A stretch of 64,000 nt of DNA. Source: Sedimentisphaerales bacterium (GTDB lineage: Bacteria; Planctomycetota; Phycisphaerae; Sedimentisphaerales; SM23-30). Of this stretch, positions 46,607 to 55,363 are shown piece by piece (within the stretch, counting starts at the first letter, position 1; each line of letters opens with the position of its first letter). The stretch lies in the NCBI GenBank assembly GCA_963666285.1, contig OY762711.1; one strand, written 5' to 3'. Both the position numbers and the translations under genes were made by a program. The notes under the pieces were generated by a model that was not told the origin of the DNA, did no database searches, and saw nothing but the letters and a program-made list of their open reading frames with translations.

Positions 46607-48115
46607 ATGTATCTTATTCGGTTAAAACAAGTTAAGCAGGCTTTCGATGCCGGAAACATTGATCAGGCATGCCAAATGCTCACCTCTGATGACTATCTCT
46701 GTCAGCGGAAAGAGGGCAAAGAGCTTCTGAACAAGCTTGCCGATGCATTTATTTTGCGAGGCAATAGCCATCTTGATTCCGGTAGATATCTTCAGGCCCG
46801 CCTCGATTGCGATAATGCCAAAAAGTGCAATATCGATAACACGGGTATTATTGTGTTAGCCGATAGCATTGAGGCTGCCGAAAAAGCTAGCTTGAATCGC
46901 CAGAGACATAACGAGGTTAATCTCATGGAAGCTAGAGATCACCTGCAGAACGGCAGGCTTACTATGGGGATGAAGATTATCGATGATAATGAAAGTATGC
47001 CCGGTGCTTCTCTGCTGCGTAAACAGGCACAGCTGCGTCAGCAGCAGCTTCAGGACATCGCTGATAAACTGAAAATCGCTTTGGATAATAACGATACAGA
47101 CTATGTCCTGCAGCTCATCGCCGACCTTAGCGACCGCGAAATGACCTCTGGTAAAATGACAGCACTTGTCAAATCCGCTCGCGATATGGTTCTGGCCCAG
47201 ATCAAATCTGATTTCGCAGCCGGTCGTCTTGCCAGGCTCGTCGCTTTACTCGAAAAGTCTAGGGTTATTACCGCCGATTCGATTGAGTTTGCCGAATGGC
47301 ACGAACTTTTGAACTGCTATCGACAGGCATCAGAATATATCGAATCCGGCAATTATCGTAAAGCTCTTCAGTTGCTGAACCGGGTAAAGTCTATTGTCTC
47401 TGATGCTGACTGGCTCAATAAACTGTTGGATAGTGTCGAACGTGCCATAGATGCTATTGATGACATCCAGTTAAATACTCCGGTTCTAAAAAACAGTAAT
47501 CTTAGTCAGGCTAAACCGGCCCCTGATAAAGTTCGGGCCGCCAGGCCTGCTCCGGTTAAGGAAGTTGTCAAGCAGACTATGGCTAATAAAATATTGAATA
47601 TTGATGGTGCCGGTTCTTATATGCTTTTTATCAGTGATAAAATTACAATTGGTCCTGTCAGCTCAATCGAAAAGAAAGATATCGCTATTATTGCATCGTC
47701 CAATTCACCCCTTATCGAAATTCATAAAGACGAAGATGACTATTTCGTTCGGGCTGCTTCCGGCGAAATTATCGTAAACGGAAAAAAACATAAAGAAGCT
47801 TTACTGAATAATGGTGACAAAATAGCTGCTTCGGACCGGTCATACGTAAAGTTTAACCGGGCCAATCCGGCTAGTTCTACTGCGATTATCGACTTGGCTG
47901 GTGTTCGCCTTCCGCAGGCTGATATCACTGCGGCGATTATGGCTGATAATGAAATTATAATCGGCTCGTCTCCTTCAGCCCATATCAAATGCAGAAACTG
48001 CAAAAGCGATATAGTATTGAAGGTTAATGCAAATGGCGGGCTCGAAAAAGACGGCCTGGAGCTTATTTCAGGTACTAATGTGGAATATGGTAATGTAAGG
48101 TTGTGTCTGGTATAG
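46607..48115 (+). CDS. Helical/TPR-like N-terminus + C-terminal degenerate FHA-like beta domains
   Basis: LNIDGAGSYMLFISDKITIG...IIVNGK...LLNNGDKI, and a second unit IIIGSSPSAHI. Confidence 0.6.
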   Translation: MYLIRLKQVKQAFDAGNIDQACQMLTSDDYLCQRKEGKELLNKLADAFILRGNSHLDSGRYLQARLDCDNAKKCNIDNTGIIVLADSIEAAEKASLNRQRHNEVNLMEARDHLQNGRLTMGMKIIDDNESMPGASLLRKQAQLRQQQLQDIADKLKIALDNNDTDYVLQLIADLSDREMTSGKMTALVKSARDMVLAQIKSDFAAGRLARLVALLEKSRVITADSIEFAEWHELLNCYRQASEYIESGNYRKALQLLNRVKSIVSDADWLNKLLDSVERAIDAIDDIQLNTPVLKNSNLSQAKPAPDKVRAARPAPVKEVVKQTMANKILNIDGAGSYMLFISDKITIGPVSSIEKKDIAIIASSNSPLIEIHKDEDDYFVRAASGEIIVNGKKHKEALLNNGDKIAASDRSYVKFNRANPASSTAIIDLAGVRLPQADITAAIMADNEIIIGSSPSAHIKCRNCKSDIVLKVNANGGLEKDGLELISGTNVEYGNVRLCLV

Positions 48116-48271
48116 GTGCCAGGTGTAAGGTTATATTTAACAAGGAAACATTATTATGGGTGTAAATGTTACCTTGCCAAGCTTTAAAACCTGGTTGCAT
48201 GACAGCACCTTAACTTATATCTTGTTACGGCAACTGTGCTGACAGTTGCAAAATTGTGAAAGACGAATAAT

Positions 48272-51200
48272 GTGATGGAGCATTTTATATATCAACATGG
48301 TGACCGCCCCTTAGAGGGCTATACAATCCAGCGGGCTGCCGGCCGCGGTGGTTTCGGCGAGGTATATTATGCCATAAGCGATTCCGGTCGGGAAGTTGCC
48401 CTGAAGGTGGTCAATAATTACGAAACGATCGAGCTGCGGGGCATTACCCAGTGCATGAACCTCAAAAGCCCGCATCTGGTTTCGATTTTTGATGTCAAAT
48501 ACAATGAAGCCAATAAGCCATTCGTTATTATGGAGTATGTCTCAGGTCCTTCATTGCGAGATCTGCTGGACCAGGCTCCCAGCGGGCTCGGCGACCAGAA
48601 GGCGGCTTTCTTCCTACGTGAAATTGCCAAGGGGCTTAGTTATCTGCACGAATGCGGCATAGTTCACCGCGACCTCAAACCCGGCAATATATTCTACGAA
48701 AACGGATATGTCAAAATCGGAGACTACGGACTTAGCAAAGCTATCAAGCATGGCTATAATAGTAACCAGACTATCACTGTTGGTACTGTTCACTATATGG
48801 CACCGGAAATTGGTGCCGGCAATTACGACAGCTCGATCGATATTTACGCGCTGGGCTGTATGCTCTATGAGATGCTCACCGGCAGCGTTCCGTTTTTTGG
48901 CAGTTCGCCCGGCGAAGTATTAATGAAGCACGTTTCTTCTCAGCCGGACCTTACCGATATCGATCCAACATTTGCCAGGGTCATTACTAAAGCTCTTGCT
49001 AAGGATCCTAACGAACGTTACCAGACTGTCCAGGAAATGGTCGAAGATGCCTTTGGCCAGGAACATATCAAAAACAGCGTCTCCCAGTTCAGGGCTGATG
49101 ACCTTTCTATGATCGCCGGTCAGGTCGCCCAAAAGATCAAAGAACGCCAGACCAGCCAGACTCGTCAGGCATCTGCCCAGCCGTCTCCGGTTGAACCTGA
49201 ACCTGCCCGGTCGGAAGATAAACGTGATTTTACCGAGCCGGATCTGCCCGAAGAAATCAACCTTTCGCCTGAAAAGGCTTTTCGGATCAAAGTACGAAAA
49301 TATGACAGGTTCTCTATCTTGGGCCGGTTATTTTCCAGTGTCATTCCAATTATCATGATGATAATTGCTTTTGCCTTTTTAATCTCCGGCATGAACCTGA
49401 GTCATTTTTATGGTATCGGTGATGGCGATGATAAACTTCTGCTGATCTTTTGTCTTGCTGCTATGCAGATTGGTGCTCTTACCGGACTTTTCTCCGGTAA
49501 CAGGCTGATTGCCGGCAAAACCAGCGATCCTGTATTAAAGAATTTCGCCAGAATTGTGCCGGCTGTTCTCCTGGCAAACTTATTTGTCTTTCCCGGCTAT
49601 ATTGATGACCCGGAATCGTTCGGCCCGGTAGTCGGCATACCATCTTGCGCCCTAATTATGCTGGCATTTATGGAAAAGAAACAGTGGCTTTCTCCCATGA
49701 GAAAACGGCAGATTGACATTGGCCATATCTTTGGCAATTGCATTTTAATGTGTATCTTGGCATTGTTTGTTCCTCGTATGGTCGGGCTGAATTTCGAATC
49801 AGTACAGTTGTATTATGCCATCTGTCTGTTTGCCGGGGTATCTTTATCTGCCCAGATTATTGCTCCTTTTATCGAACCGGCTGATCGCCAGGCATTCGAA
49901 ACCGACGATACCAACTATGCCGCTGTGTGTAATAAAAGGCTTCATCACGACTCCAGGGGCCAGGCCCTTCAACCCGACTGGCTAAAGGGGCTCTGGCGTG
50001 CCGTTTCCGGGCTGCTGTTGACTACTGCCATAGTAATGATTTTTGTTGCTGATGAGTGTAATTACGGAAGTGATTGTGATTTGGCGGTTGCATTTTGTGT
50101 GGGTGCTTTTATCTTGTTCTTTGCCTCGCTCAGACCGTCTTTCTGCAAATATTATAAAGGGCTCGGCAAAAGCCTGGTTAAGCCGCTTATACTTATGATT
50201 TCATTTGCCGCCTCATATATTGGCTTTTTTGGCATGATCATTATGAATGAGGGCGCGTTTTTGTTATTTGCTATCCCAGGCATCCTGATCTTCTGGATAG
50301 CTCTGTTCATGCCCGCACGCATATTCGATACCGCTGCCGACAAATCAGGACGAGCCTTTGCTGCCAAAAAAGAAAATAGCCCAAACGCCTATCCCCATCA
50401 GAAAATTATGCCCAAACCGGACTGGCTCAAGGCTACCTGGTATTCGATTTCGGCCATTCTCTTTTCCCTTATGGTATCACTATATATTGCCATTGGCTTT
50501 TCCGGTGAAGAGGATTTTTGCATTAGTATGGGAATTGCCGCTAATATACTGTTTATCTATTCTCTGTTCTATACCTTATCCGGCTCTTACAAGGGACTCG
50601 GCAAGAGCCTGATAAAGCCGGCATTGTTAATGTTTCATTTTGCTGTTGCACATTTATTTTTCACTCTGCTCGCTCTCTCTGGCCAGGAAGAATTTACCGC
50701 CGGTGCTGTCCCGGCAACTATCTTGTTCATTGTCGTTCTCTTTATGCCCGGCAGGGTATTCGATACCGCTGCTGAAAAATCCTCGCGATTAGCTGCTTCT
50801 GCTTTCAGACATAATAGAAATATAAATACCTCAAAAATATCTACATCTAAACGTGGCGTAGCTCTTCTGTTAAGCTTCATTCCTTTAATGTCAGGTTTTG
50901 TCGGCCCTCATGGTATCCATCGGTTTTATGTCGGAAGAATCGGTACCGGTATTCTATGGCTGGTTACAGGCGGGCTCTTTGGGGTTGGCCAGTTGATTGA
51001 TATAATTATGATTCTTACCGGCAGTTTTACCGATAAAAACGGTAAACCGCTCCTGATTTGGTGGAATGAAGAGCCTACCCCTGAATATTATGAAAAGGCG
51101 GCTCATACCCGCCATACCGGCATAAATAATAATAACAATTTCGCCGATAATGTGATGAATGATGTCAGAAGTACCGTTGAGGATATCAAGGAATCTGTTC

Positions 51201-51892
51201 GCTCTGTTACTGCTTCGGCAAAAGAAAAAGTAGCTACTGTAAAAGAACAGGTTGACAATAACGAATTTGTCGAAGATAGAAAGCAGAATGGCGAATGGTT
51301 CTCTCATGGTTCAAACTATTCAACTTACCGTGAACCGATGCGGCCTGGTGCTGCTCTACTGCGGCTTATCGGCTTTGTTTTCCTGTTAATATCTACTGTT
51401 GCCGCATTTGCCTGGGCTGCCAGGCTTCCGATTATTGTAAAAAATATTCCTGATATCTCTTCCGGCATTGATACAGAGCTCGGCGGCCCTCAGATGTGGA
51501 TGTTTATGGATAAAATCATCGTCATTATTATGATTACCGCTATGCTGCTTTCGATGCTCTTTACCTCGCTCGGCCGCAAGCATAAAAACGGTTGGCATAT
51601 GCTGCGTGGCATCATTAGTATCGGAATGGTTGCCATCGTTGCCAATAGCTGGGCTGGTATTACAGATTCCAAACTGAACAATAATTTACCGATGTTCTCT
51701 CCCAGCGGGCGTATTCCAAACGATATTATGAATTTATTCTTTAACTCTCTGCCTTCTGGCGAAGGGTTGATAACTATATTAGTCTTGGCGGTTATTGCTA
51801 TTGTGCTTTTTGCCTGGCCCGCCAGGAAACCGCAGCCTCAGCAATTTGAAAATATCTTCAGGGGCAGCGAGACTGTAGGCAATGGAAACTGA
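48272..51892 (+). CDS. Hanks-type Ser/Thr kinase with very large polytopic membrane region and TM2 domain
   Basis: [35 protein letters not shown]; many TM helices; [30 protein letters not shown] (TM2). Confidence 0.92.
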
Positions 51893-51919
51893 AACTGAGT
51901 ATTTCCAAGTTGAAGAAAA

Positions 51920-53326
51920 ATGGATGTGATTACTATGATGATAGCACCTAAAGGAATAATTATGGCACCTTTATTTATACTATTGATTTTATTATTACTC
52001 GTCGGCTTGATCATTCTTATCATCAAAAAGCCGAAAGTTTTATTACCTTTTCTTATTGTTGGATTGATCTTAATTGCTGTTATGTTCTTTGGCTATTCAG
52101 TTAAGGTCCCGGATGCCAGGCATTCTCAGCCGTCCGCTTCGGTTGTTGTTCAGTCGCCGGACACTGCCGCTGCTGCTCCTGTCTCGTTTCCCGATATCTG
52201 GAAAACCGGCATAGAAACCGAATTCGAAGTTGCTGATTATACCTCTATCGAAGCCGCCGCCGCCGGGCTTGCCAAAAAGATAGCTTTAGAGGGTTATTTG
52301 AACGACGCTATCAAAAATAACGGCCCAGGTGAGGTTAAATTCCTGACCGATATCCAGGTTTGCGGTGAAATTAACACCGGCATAGCAGATAATATGACTG
52401 TACTCGAAGCTGCCGCCGATTCTTTCAGAAAATACGCCGCACCTTCGATAGATTCTGAACAGGCTCCTGGTATTGTTTCTGGTGTCGAACCTGTAAAAGT
52501 CACTGTCAGTCCCGCTATCCCTGCCAACCCGCTTTGGGGCGCCAAAAACGGGGCGGTACTGGTAAAGATTACCGCACGGATTAACAATTCAAACGAAATC
52601 GATAACGCTCTCACTCGCCACGGAATTTTATCCATGCAGGTTCAGGCCAACAGTTACCAGCTCGACAATTCCGCCGCTTTTTCAGAAGCCAACTGGCTTG
52701 TTAAACCGGAAAATTTCGCTCGGCGTATCCATCCCAACAATACCTGGCTTATCGGCTATTCGCAAACCGCATGCAGCGACCCAGCCGAAGCTCGCAGCCA
52801 GGCAATTGACGATGCCGCACTCAGGATCGCTAAAAATTTCGGCTCTGATATTACCTTTGACAAATCCGACATCAGCAGGTTGAGTCTCATCAAGGACACC
52901 TATACCCAGAAGCTAAGGGGCAGCCAGGGCGATATATATCGCACCGCCGTTCTCATCAGCGGCCAAACTTCTGTTATTAGCAACAATTTGACCGCTTTAC
53001 GCAATTCTCATACACAACAGGTAACTACAGAACAGGTACATAGGCAGAACAGCATCCTTTCCGGTTGGGCCTCTATCGCAATCCTGGTCGCTGCTATTTT
53101 CCTCAGCTATTTCCTGCTCGATTTCGTCACAAAGGGCTACTACAAGGGCCGGCTTGTCCTGGTTCTTATCGCACTCGCCGTTCTCGGCATAATTGCAATT
53201 GTGTTTATCAGCCGCCAGAGAGCCGGAATTATGGCCTATAACAATCACACGGTCAATCACTCCGTATACGGTCAGGTAGATGAAAACAATATGCCTTTCA
53301 AACTGACCATCGGTCAGTTTGTGTAA
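51920..53326 (+). CDS. Hypothetical membrane protein (N- and C-terminal TM pairs around a soluble domain)
   Basis: Hydrophobicity pattern; starts 27 nt after the kinase stop. Confidence 0.7.
   Translation: MDVITMMIAPKGIIMAPLFILLILLLLVGLIILIIKKPKVLLPFLIVGLILIAVMFFGYSVKVPDARHSQPSASVVVQSPDTAAAAPVSFPDIWKTGIETEFEVADYTSIEAAAAGLAKKIALEGYLNDAIKNNGPGEVKFLTDIQVCGEINTGIADNMTVLEAAADSFRKYAAPSIDSEQAPGIVSGVEPVKVTVSPAIPANPLWGAKNGAVLVKITARINNSNEIDNALTRHGILSMQVQANSYQLDNSAAFSEANWLVKPENFARRIHPNNTWLIGYSQTACSDPAEARSQAIDDAALRIAKNFGSDITFDKSDISRLSLIKDTYTQKLRGSQGDIYRTAVLISGQTSVISNNLTALRNSHTQQVTTEQVHRQNSILSGWASIAILVAAIFLSYFLLDFVTKGYYKGRLVLVLIALAVLGIIAIVFISRQRAGIMAYNNHTVNHSVYGQVDENNMPFKLTIGQFV
53299..53321. repeat. REP-like palindrome, copy 4 (inside the last codons of the ORF)
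   Basis: CAAACTGACC-ATC-GGTCAGTTTG. Confidence 0.88.
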
Positions 53327-53625
53327 ATATTAAAACACGAGCAGAATGAAATCTGCCTTAAGCGGAGCGAGTCACCTTATAATTATTGGTGTGAATTCGT
53401 GTCCATCCTATGAACCGGAGCATTTCAAGTTGTTTTTCTTCTTTTTTACATTTTTATCAAATTTCCTGGGTTTTTGCCCCTGTAGCTTCGTCGCCTCGGC
53501 GTCAGCTCTCACCCAAACATGGGCTGATGCCGATGGCGTAAGAAGTTACAGGGGCTAACCCTGTTAGCTTTTGAGCTGAGGCAGAGGCCTCATATTTTAT
53601 TAACTGAGCTGCTTTTGGCAGGCAT

Positions 53626-53773
53626 TCAACGACCTAACCTCCTATTCGTACTCACCTTATTCGGCGGCACATTAAACTTTATACAGACCGTAACTCCCAT
53701 TCTTCGTGACGAGGTTTTAAGTAAACTTAAACTTCAATTGACATTCACCGGGATCTTACGGCATAGTCGCTCA
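53626..53773 (-). ncRNA. Predicted bridge/seek guide RNA of the IS110 element
   Basis: Closing stem plus two guide-hairpin-guide units whose unpaired segments match the target and the donor junction (see findings). Confidence 0.65.
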
Positions 53774-53792
53774 GCCTTTATTATATTGTCTT

Positions 53793-54851
53793 CTATGCAG
53801 CCTGATTTATCATTTCTGCGTTAAACATCTCGCCTGTCTTCAACATGGCTCTCATTATCGATGTTAACTTACGTGCTACCGCAACTATCGCTATCTTTTT
53901 CCTGCCGTCCTGACCGGCCATGACCCGCTCATAAAACTGCCTTATCGCCGGGCAAAACCTCACAACACGCCAGCTTGACTCACATAATGCCCATCGCACT
54001 ACCTGCGGACCATGCTTGCTGATATGTCCCAATCTGCGAGTCGAACCGCTCTCATCCAGCTTTGGCGTTAAGCCAAAGTAGGCACTGTATTGCTTATAGT
54101 TACTAAACCTGTCTATATCATCTGTATAAGCAAGCATCGCCTCAGCTGTCCTTGGACCAACCCCGGGAATACTCATCAATAATTCAGCTCCAGGATTATC
54201 TTTTATCTTCTCATCCAGTCTGGCTGTTATCTTATCTCTTTGATTCTCCAGTAATTTTAACTGTTCAAGTAAATCTTCCAACTGAAGACTCCACAGTACA
54301 TCTTCTTTTGACTTTGTTAAGCTCTCCATCCAGACTCGATTCTTCTTGCTCCACCAGGTGCCTTTATGCTCTGGCACTAAATAGCCATTGCTCTTTATCA
54401 ACGCTCTTATCTGATTCTTGGTCTGACCAACTTTACGTACCGTCTTCTGGCGATGCAATATCATCTGACGCCATTGCCTTACCGCCTTATCTGGCATATA
54501 AACACTTGGCAATTCATCAATACTGTACAAAATTGCCATCTTACGCGCATCTATTCGATCGTTTTTCTTATTGGTACGATATATCCAGGTAGCTTTGGTG
54601 GGATTCACTACCTTCACTTCATCCACCAGGTCAACTATCTGATCATATATCCAACCGGCCAAACCGCTAACCTCAAACGCCACAAATACCTTATTCTTCT
54701 TAGACTTATGCTTTATCAAAAAATCTTGCAAACTGCCAATGTCAGGAGGTAATGTCGCGTACTTCTCTGTACCATTTTCATATACCATTGAAACTGTTTT
54801 CTTGCTATCCATATCTAATCCGATATACTTAATCATAACTGGGGCCTCCAA
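53793..54851 (-). CDS. IS110-family DEDD recombinase/transposase
   Basis: IGLD, AFE, KNDRIDA (DEDD); LMSIPGVG, GLTPKLDESG (catalytic Ser), AIVAVARKL. Confidence 0.95.
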   Translation of the reverse strand: MEAPVMIKYIGLDMDSKKTVSMVYENGTEKYATLPPDIGSLQDFLIKHKSKKNKVFVAFEVSGLAGWIYDQIVDLVDEVKVVNPTKATWIYRTNKKNDRIDARKMAILYSIDELPSVYMPDKAVRQWRQMILHRQKTVRKVGQTKNQIRALIKSNGYLVPEHKGTWWSKKNRVWMESLTKSKEDVLWSLQLEDLLEQLKLLENQRDKITARLDEKIKDNPGAELLMSIPGVGPRTAEAMLAYTDDIDRFSNYKQYSAYFGLTPKLDESGSTRRLGHISKHGPQVVRWALCESSWRVVRFCPAIRQFYERVMAGQDGRKKIAIVAVARKLTSIMRAMLKTGEMFNAEMINQAA

Positions 54852-55363
54852 TAAGGTTTATTGTTTGTGCTTCGAGCACGTTTAAAATAGGACGTCGTAT
54901 TATATTATACTCGATCCTGAATTAACCGGGAGGCTCCGGTTACCATAGCTTATTCGTGGTTTAGCTCTTTTATATTTTCTTTTTACATTTTTTGTGTATT
55001 TCATGAAAAAGTTTCACCCACCGCAGACTGACCGGTGTTTATCGCGGTTAAATTCCAGGCATTTTCATATTGTTTTCTCCTGAACTTCCGTTTAAAATCT
55101 CTTTTCGGTTAAGAATTTCCAATTTTGCACAAGGCGTTAAAATTCAACATTTTACCCCTAAATTACTTCTTCGCCGTGATAGCTCCGTAAGCGTCCGTGG
55201 CCGTTTACAGCCTTTCGCTGCCTGCCGCGCTGCCTCCGTTCGACGGCGTTTAACGTCGTAAAGAGGCCAAAATTCGGCTTTTTCGCTGTTTTGGTAGCAC
55301 CAGTACTGAACATTACATTAAAATAATTCTACTCAATAGCAAACTCAATTTTCCTTCCATTAT

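Follow-up and report, generated by a model that had tools for sequence, protein, structure and literature searches.

The window, which is the whole 64,000-nt stretch of DNA that was analysed, carries an intact IS110-family element of 1,547 bp on its minus strand at 53407-54953 (Table 1). The recombinase gene was taken to start at the ATG at 54836, as in the database protein; the open frame extends to a TTG at 54851. An N-terminal DEDD domain (PF01548) and a C-terminal Tnp domain (PF02371) with the conserved Ser-Gly were both found. Residues D8/E55/D93/D96 and the stretch GLTPKLDESG, with S263, were invariant or nearly so in 115 homologues. Insertion was oriented and site-specific, with no target duplication beyond the shared core (four copies, five exact empty sites), as is characteristic of IS110 members.

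Table 1. Positions of the element, its predicted RNA and the target repeat (window positions unless a contig is given).
Feature	Position	Strand	Basis
Whole insertion sequence, 1,547 bp including one AT copy at 54952-54953	53407..54953	-	
IS110-family recombinase, 347 aa	53793..54836	-	PF01548, PF02371; NF033542 above cut-off
3′ non-coding region (right end), 386 nt, predicted to encode the guide RNA	53407..53792	-	fold z -5.0
Right subterminal inverted repeat, 3 nt from right end	53410..53421	.	sequence
Left subterminal inverted repeat, matching over 12 bp apart from a 2-nt insert, 7 nt from left end	54933..54946	.	sequence
Putative -35-like hexamer TTGAAA	53423..53428	-	17 nt from TAAGCT, which forms only at the circle junction
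Long hairpin between guide RNA and right end	53467..53560	-	fold; look-alike on contig C4
Predicted bridge/seek RNA, two loop units, approximate ends	53621..53779	-	single-sequence and consensus folds
Left target guide UGUCAAU, covering target positions 3-9 with position 7 mismatched	53737..53743	-	covaries with flanks, positions 2-7, 47 elements
Right target guide CACGAAG, pairing with positions 14-9, its final G facing position 8 unpaired	53702..53708	-	covaries at positions 10-14, 47 elements
Target-loop handshake bases AA, facing donor positions 7, 6 (TT)	53700..53701	-	AA in 51/52 RNAs
Left donor guide AGUUUA, covering donor positions 3-8 with a single G-U wobble	53673..53678	-	covariation at positions 5, 8, 48 elements
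Right donor guide AUAGGAG, pairing with positions 14-9, its final G facing position 8	53639..53645	-	matches conserved right end
Donor-loop handshake bases GU, G complementary to target C7	53637..53638	-	pairing there in 42/47 elements
Host dispersed intergenic repeat with phased ATTCGTG units, left part	53330..53406	+	same sequence before empty and filled sites; limits approximate
Target left half and core (CGTGTCC-AT)	53398..53406	+	sequence and copy comparison
Target right half (TCGTG)	54954..54958	+	sequence and copy comparison
Insertions of IS110 families B and C	C1:714499, 716543, 909037, 915070, 3961188, 4023985, 4653017, 6009883; C1:3804253, 5397364, 6012049		

The limits of the element, its copies and its empty sites could be observed directly. 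Removal of 53407-54953 rebuilt the target as an earlier sequence-only reading had proposed, giving GAATTCGTGTCC-AT-TCGTGGTT with two ATTCGTG units 10 nt apart. All four copies in the genome were 1,547 bp long, with 0, 0, 1 and 10 differences, and shared identical ends, as that reading expected. The flank that it predicted for the other copies, GTGTCCAT^TCGTG, was found at three of the four (GTGTCCAT followed by TCGTGG) and not at the remaining copy (GTATCCAT^CAGTG; GTATCCAT followed by CAGTGG). After in-silico removal of the copies, the genome contained eight TGTC-N-AT-TCGTG sites, N being C in all, of which three were filled and five empty. Contig depth was ~100 within the element compared with ~29 in the flank. 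A related-strain contig from an independent sediment run crosses the locus without the element, with 13 other letters instead and a depth of ~3 (3.2); the element at 53407-54953 is therefore an insertion. This element-free allele is a variant of the repeat and differs from the exact empty site. The circle junction was absent from the contigs of four runs; such contigs drop rare forms, and the result counts neither for nor against a circle.

In its anatomy the element is of the IS1111 type. The recombinase (347 aa, GLTPKLDESG) falls within the 330-350 aa and GL-P----S(t)G of that group, non-coding sequence extends for 386 nt downstream of the gene compared with 117 nt upstream, and in the predicted RNA the top-strand match lies 5′ of the bottom-strand match. 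The subterminal inverted repeats are perfect over 9 bp, or over 12 bp with a 2-nt insert, and leave extensions of 7 nt on the left and 3 nt on the right. The repeats described for IS1111 elements are 7-17 bp long, mostly 11-13, and leave 7 nt on the left and 3 nt on the right (PMC11187229). A TTG at promoter-like 17-nt spacing occurred in 40 of 43 rebuilt junctions, all of them reconstructed. At two related loci (L123, L126) the right end of the element family lies directly before a left end, as tandem copies, and in a third (L036) the right end is duplicated.

Of 3,047 candidates from a protein search, 845 were homologues at E<=1e-30, labelled mainly as Planctomycetota bins and as sediment or water metagenomes. 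The best of seven named IS110-family proteins compared was ISLin1 (29% identity, E 2e-41); ISEc11 had 27%. In a tree of 28 proteins, seven of them named and with long branches, the lineage joined paralogue B and other Planctomycetota proteins (97/96). It fell outside the tight cluster of ISEc11, IS5708 and ISShdy1, joining it at a poorly resolved fork, and apart from ISSfl4 and ISEc32. Among the matches listed from the best 5,000 plasmid records, none exceeded ~31% over most of the length, and no relatives were found by a single-protein scan of genome contigs or an alignment scan of viral contigs.

Both folds of the 3′ region contained the arrangement that the sequence-only reading had described, a loop closed by CCGUAA/UUACGG around a hairpin, followed by a second hairpin unit. 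The single-sequence fold gave the closed stem with its inner hairpin and the second unit (z -2.0; -5.0 for the whole region). The consensus fold of 46 relatives gave two stem/internal-loop/hairpin units, with changes on both sides in 17 of 30 pairs. Two Rfam matches were weak, far below the gathering score, and were disregarded. A 74% identical look-alike of the 53467-53560 hairpin occurs at C4:42547-42660, just downstream of a gene, where the element is absent.

Guide segments were numbered by the IS621 scheme, with the window plus strand as top. All four that had been proposed lie where they were placed, namely UGUCAAUU at 53743-53736, CACGAA at 53708-53703, AGUUUA at 53678-53673 and AUAGGA at 53645-53640. 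In the 7/8 match to the target that had been given for the first, the eighth base lies beyond the core, whereas the left guides of relatives stop at the core. In the window copy this guide mismatches its target at positions 1, 2 and 7. Among 5,000 dinucleotide shuffles of the 386-nt region, the target-guide pair occurred in one, the donor-guide pair in 122 and both in order in none. Because the shuffle patterns were chosen after the fact, the test across homologues outweighs this one. At the fourth copy the right target guide was matched at only 3/5 positions, and it is mainly the left guide that matches; a half-match preprint offers a published explanation that would fit. Allowing wobble, 36 genomic sites matched the guides, which are short; three were filled and the 33 others empty.

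Relatives were drawn from the alignment of 115 homologues, from which 160 loci were fetched. Those at ~50% identity or more (57 loci) were combined with the window copy, and one without an RNA and five duplicates were removed, leaving 52 distinct RNAs, 47 with each flank. Ends were nearly the same as those of the window copy, while flanks varied. The covariation of target guides with flanks, which the sequence-only reading had named as a check, was directly evident in these 47 distinct relatives. Right target guides matched their own flank at 4.15 of 5 positions, compared with 2.74 when shuffled (n = 47), and left target guides at 4.53 of 7, compared with 2.72 (n = 47); neither value was reached in 20,000 permutations. 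The register of the left guide was set from the hairpin, blind to the target; this superseded an earlier test with the best register per pair, in which the contrast was weaker (5.74 vs 4.64). The signal was limited to positions 2-7 and 10-14. The left guide of L134 and the flank of L036, with its duplicated end, look mis-set by these rules and were kept as scored, and several relatives showed one-base slips between guide and flank. For most relatives a single insertion is known.

Donor guides gave a sparser signal. The left donor guide matched position 3 in 48/48 elements and covaried with the end at positions 5 and 8 (P = 0.003 and 0.002, n = 48), with few independent events, and it pairs poorly in many relatives. 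A no-bulge register for this guide was rejected, with 0/48 matches at two positions. The right donor guide was constant and equal to the conserved right end; its constancy is no test, because it was part of the search pattern. All covariation P values overstate the evidence because the elements are kin. The proposal of a new programmable recombinase holds in that this is a new, unnamed member of a described class; judging from the natural covariation, the protein would be programmable.

The AT core that had been proposed applies to the window copy and does not extend to the lineage as a rule. Over 42 elements the cores at the left-end and right-end junctions were AT/AT in 33, CT/AT in four, AT/CT in three, CT/CT in one and CT/TT in one, so that position 8, the first core base, was unequal at the two junctions in 8/42 and the T alone was constant. 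T9 was found at 47/47 left-end junctions; at the other junction the search pattern imposed it. In 50/52 RNAs a G of the guide faces position 8, and in most members this conserved G is unpaired because the core is AT rather than CT. The arrangement of IS621, a shared CT core with which both right guides pair, does not hold here. A left-end C occurred in seven elements; since six of these form one clade, position 8 at the left end is inherited along with the element. In elements with a right-end C, rebuilding the site, judged by eye, brings back the repeat's own period. The published IS621 model has top-strand cleavage after position 9 and repair of mismatches in the bottom strand (PMC11208158, PMC13626964), and the first core base is stated to be less conserved (PMC11208158). 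The unequal position 8 and the G opposite it fit this model.

The IS621 mechanism includes two bases beyond each right guide that, once strands have been exchanged, pair with the other DNA at its positions 7 and 6 (PMC11208158, PMC13626964), and we looked for such handshake bases here. In the window copy, the donor-loop G pairs with target C7, the sole place within the guide's paired span where the left guide mismatches, and the target-loop AA faces donor TT. The constancy of this AA (51/52) was partly fixed by the search pattern. The donor-loop base paired with target position 7 in 42/47 elements, compared with 35.2 expected (P = 1e-5, kinship ignored); 38 pairs were U:A, two G:C and two C:G, with five mismatches. 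This base changed three times on the tree, and in each lineage the target base followed, in 4/5 scorable non-U elements. At donor-loop position 6 there was no pairing signal (9/47 vs 14.4 expected). The handshake of bridge RNAs was thus found at position 7, in three lineages, and not at donor-loop position 6. By eye, paralogue C showed pairing at all four handshake positions, and paralogue B and ISEc11 at the two target-loop positions only, their donor-loop pair not being Watson-Crick.

It was considered whether, at position 7, the handshake base takes precedence over the left guide. Relatives were split, and dominance is not claimed: in eight elements with a conflict, the target followed the handshake in four, the guide in two and neither in two as scored, and these last two look mis-registered and would side with the guide. 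All eight strict sites in this genome carry C at position 7 and so offer no contrast. In the text of the papers covered, mostly open ones, no report was found on handshake pairing in IS1111-type elements; the predicted cores of three IS1111 members in Extended Data Fig. 10c of PMC11208160 could bear on novelty.

The target is a dispersed repeat, as the sequence-only reading held, and three of the four copies occupy an identical site in its 10-bp-phased units. The repeat continues on the right side of the element at 54954-54970, and pairs of TTCGTG at 10-nt spacing occurred 35 times in the genome, compared with 0.17 expected. Across the lineage, a heptamer recurred at 9-11 nt across the insertion point (at least 6/7 bases) in 17/41 rebuilt sites, compared with 1.0% of 6,806 control positions; several other relatives had different, non-periodic sites agreeing with their guides. 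Two further IS110 families insert into the same ATTCGTG unit: family B (nine copies, 34% identity, core TT) and family C (three copies, 23% identity, core CA, opposite orientation). They use different registers of the unit and have readable guides, and by eye both paralogues show the four-guide layout and target-loop handshake of the window element. A connection between the repeat and GxxExxY genes was looked for and not found: the genome gave 0 matches to PF13366, and among the matches listed for the flanks of 41 loci there was none to the motif. In the literature covered, again mostly open papers, there was nothing on point for this lineage in Planctomycetota or for the phased repeats.

One family B copy (C1:3248919-3250487) lies within a spacer of a CRISPR array with 36-nt repeats; the 29-nt spacer consists of three phased TTCGTG units. 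We take this array to be Cas12a-like. A different gene, for a transposase-like protein of 427 aa, adjoins empty target repeats at two loci (C1:514338-515621 and 5988788-5990071).

Taken as a whole, we put the probability at about 0.88 that this is a recently mobile IS110-family element with IS1111-type layout, guided by a two-loop RNA to a phased repeat. By analogy with known IS110/IS1111 biology, we infer that the RNA is expressed, that a circle forms and that the chemistry proceeds as follows. The circle junction would create a promoter for the recombinase gene and the guide RNA downstream. Loop 1 would pair with the two target strands, the target being read against the orientation of the element, and loop 2 with the two strands of the joined ends. 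The top strands would then be cut after position 9 (T) and swapped by the DEDD/serine recombinase, and the handshake bases next to the right-hand guides would pair with the strands coming in, AA with donor TT and the G with C7 of the target. Position 8 would be free to differ between donor and target and would remain with the left half-site. The target, one unit of the 10-bp-phased intergenic heptamer repeat, would be a harmless multi-copy landing site.

The role of the guides could be smaller if target choice depended mostly on repeat context, that is on phased units, local structure or a bound protein, with guides only partly specific. Only three of the 36 wobble-matching sites are filled, and all three are in the repeat; the fourth copy, despite two mismatches, sits in a similar phased repeat; and there are the one-base slips in several relatives. 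The three filled sites are, however, among the eight best Watson-Crick matches, so pairing alone explains them, and L026, L027, L132 and L143, with other guides, lie in non-periodic, exactly matching sites. This explanation is unlikely. It is hardly credible that the guides match by chance or as relics and that the protein itself encodes the site preference: single guides of 6-8 nt were each found in 6-93% of shuffles, but their ordered co-occurrence was found in 0/5,000, and the covariation runs position by position over 47 elements.

The part played by the second loop is a separate matter. The target loop alone might be the active short RNA, the protein reading the ends at the subterminal inverted repeats and the second loop being part of a precursor or minor. 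For ISEc11 a target-only RNA of 70-100 nt was more abundant and sufficient, and families may differ in mechanism (Siddiquee et al., PMC11187229). Here the donor guides are short, and both the poor pairing of the left one and the occurrence of the pair in shuffles would agree with this. Yet the second unit is kept in 52 RNAs, the right donor guide equals the conserved end, the left one changes together with the end, and the target is followed by the base next to the right donor guide. A target-only RNA thus seems quite improbable, and two-loop guidance is the reading that we retain.

With ISEc11, ISPa11 and ISKpn4 (PMC11187229) the element shares a DEDD recombinase of 330-350 aa with GL-P----SG, a long downstream non-coding region, subterminal inverted repeats with 7- and 3-nt extensions and a top-strand match 5′ of the bottom-strand match; its promoter-like junction hexamers may correspond to their junction promoter. 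A dispersed repeat is also the target of ISPa11, there REP (PMC11187229). The element differs from the ISEc11 group in its recombinase (27% identity to ISEc11, outside its cluster), in the insert within the inverted repeat and in its target, a phased direct heptamer repeat with no REP palindrome or attC site. The right end of ISEc11 (L183:1418-1690), examined by eye, has a donor loop and target-loop handshake bases in the layout of the window element. ISLin1, from Leptospira, falls apart from the lineage in the tree, for which seven named elements were compared, and its long non-coding part appears to be upstream.

Like IS621 and ISCro4 (PMC11208160, PMC11208158, PMC13626964), the element has two loops with left and right guides, T9, a G opposite position 8 and the handshake beside the right guides. 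Unlike these, its RNA lies in the right end, the target is read opposite to the element, the core is AT and not CT, and the recombinase gives a weak sequence match over the C-terminal half only. Predicted RNA-guided insertion into a multi-copy intergenic repeat is shared with the REP/BIME-targeting elements IS621 and ISPpu9 (PMC12288879); the differences are another class of repeat and three unrelated families on one repeat in this genome.

In itself the element is an unremarkable case of a kind first reported in 2024, and its relatives are unusually clear natural evidence on guide function. What they may add beyond the known is the handshake and core evidence in a lineage with a right-end RNA. 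A wider proposal, to which we would give even odds, is that the unnamed lineage (845 proteins, E<=1e-30), mostly environmental, is specialized on the widespread heptamer repeats of 9-10-bp phase and works by the complete two-loop mechanism of the IS621 type, with a handshake and a single-T core. If so, it would be natural evidence, against a view based on seekRNAs only, that right-end (IS1111-type) RNAs need the donor loop, and an example of a bridge recombinase joining sites with just one base in common. IS110/IS1111 RNA-guided recombinases are under development as genome-editing tools, and the two founding papers disagree on the use of the donor loop in the IS1111 type. The lineage offers a testable natural case, with a donor-loop base that follows the target and donor/target pairs whose first core base is unequal. 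It also makes plain that several unrelated guided elements share the phased heptamer repeats of environmental bacteria as landing sites at the same time.

The surroundings of the insertion contain other repeated DNA. Just left of the target repeat (53290-53330) contig depth rises about tenfold with many loose ends, which marks another multi-copy element where the upstream gene ends, and to the right of the element (55168-55251) there is another multi-copy stretch with variant contigs. Upstream, at 46607-53326, an operon-like run unrelated to the element comprises genes for a TPR protein, for a membrane Ser/Thr kinase carrying a TM2 domain and for a membrane protein of 468 aa.
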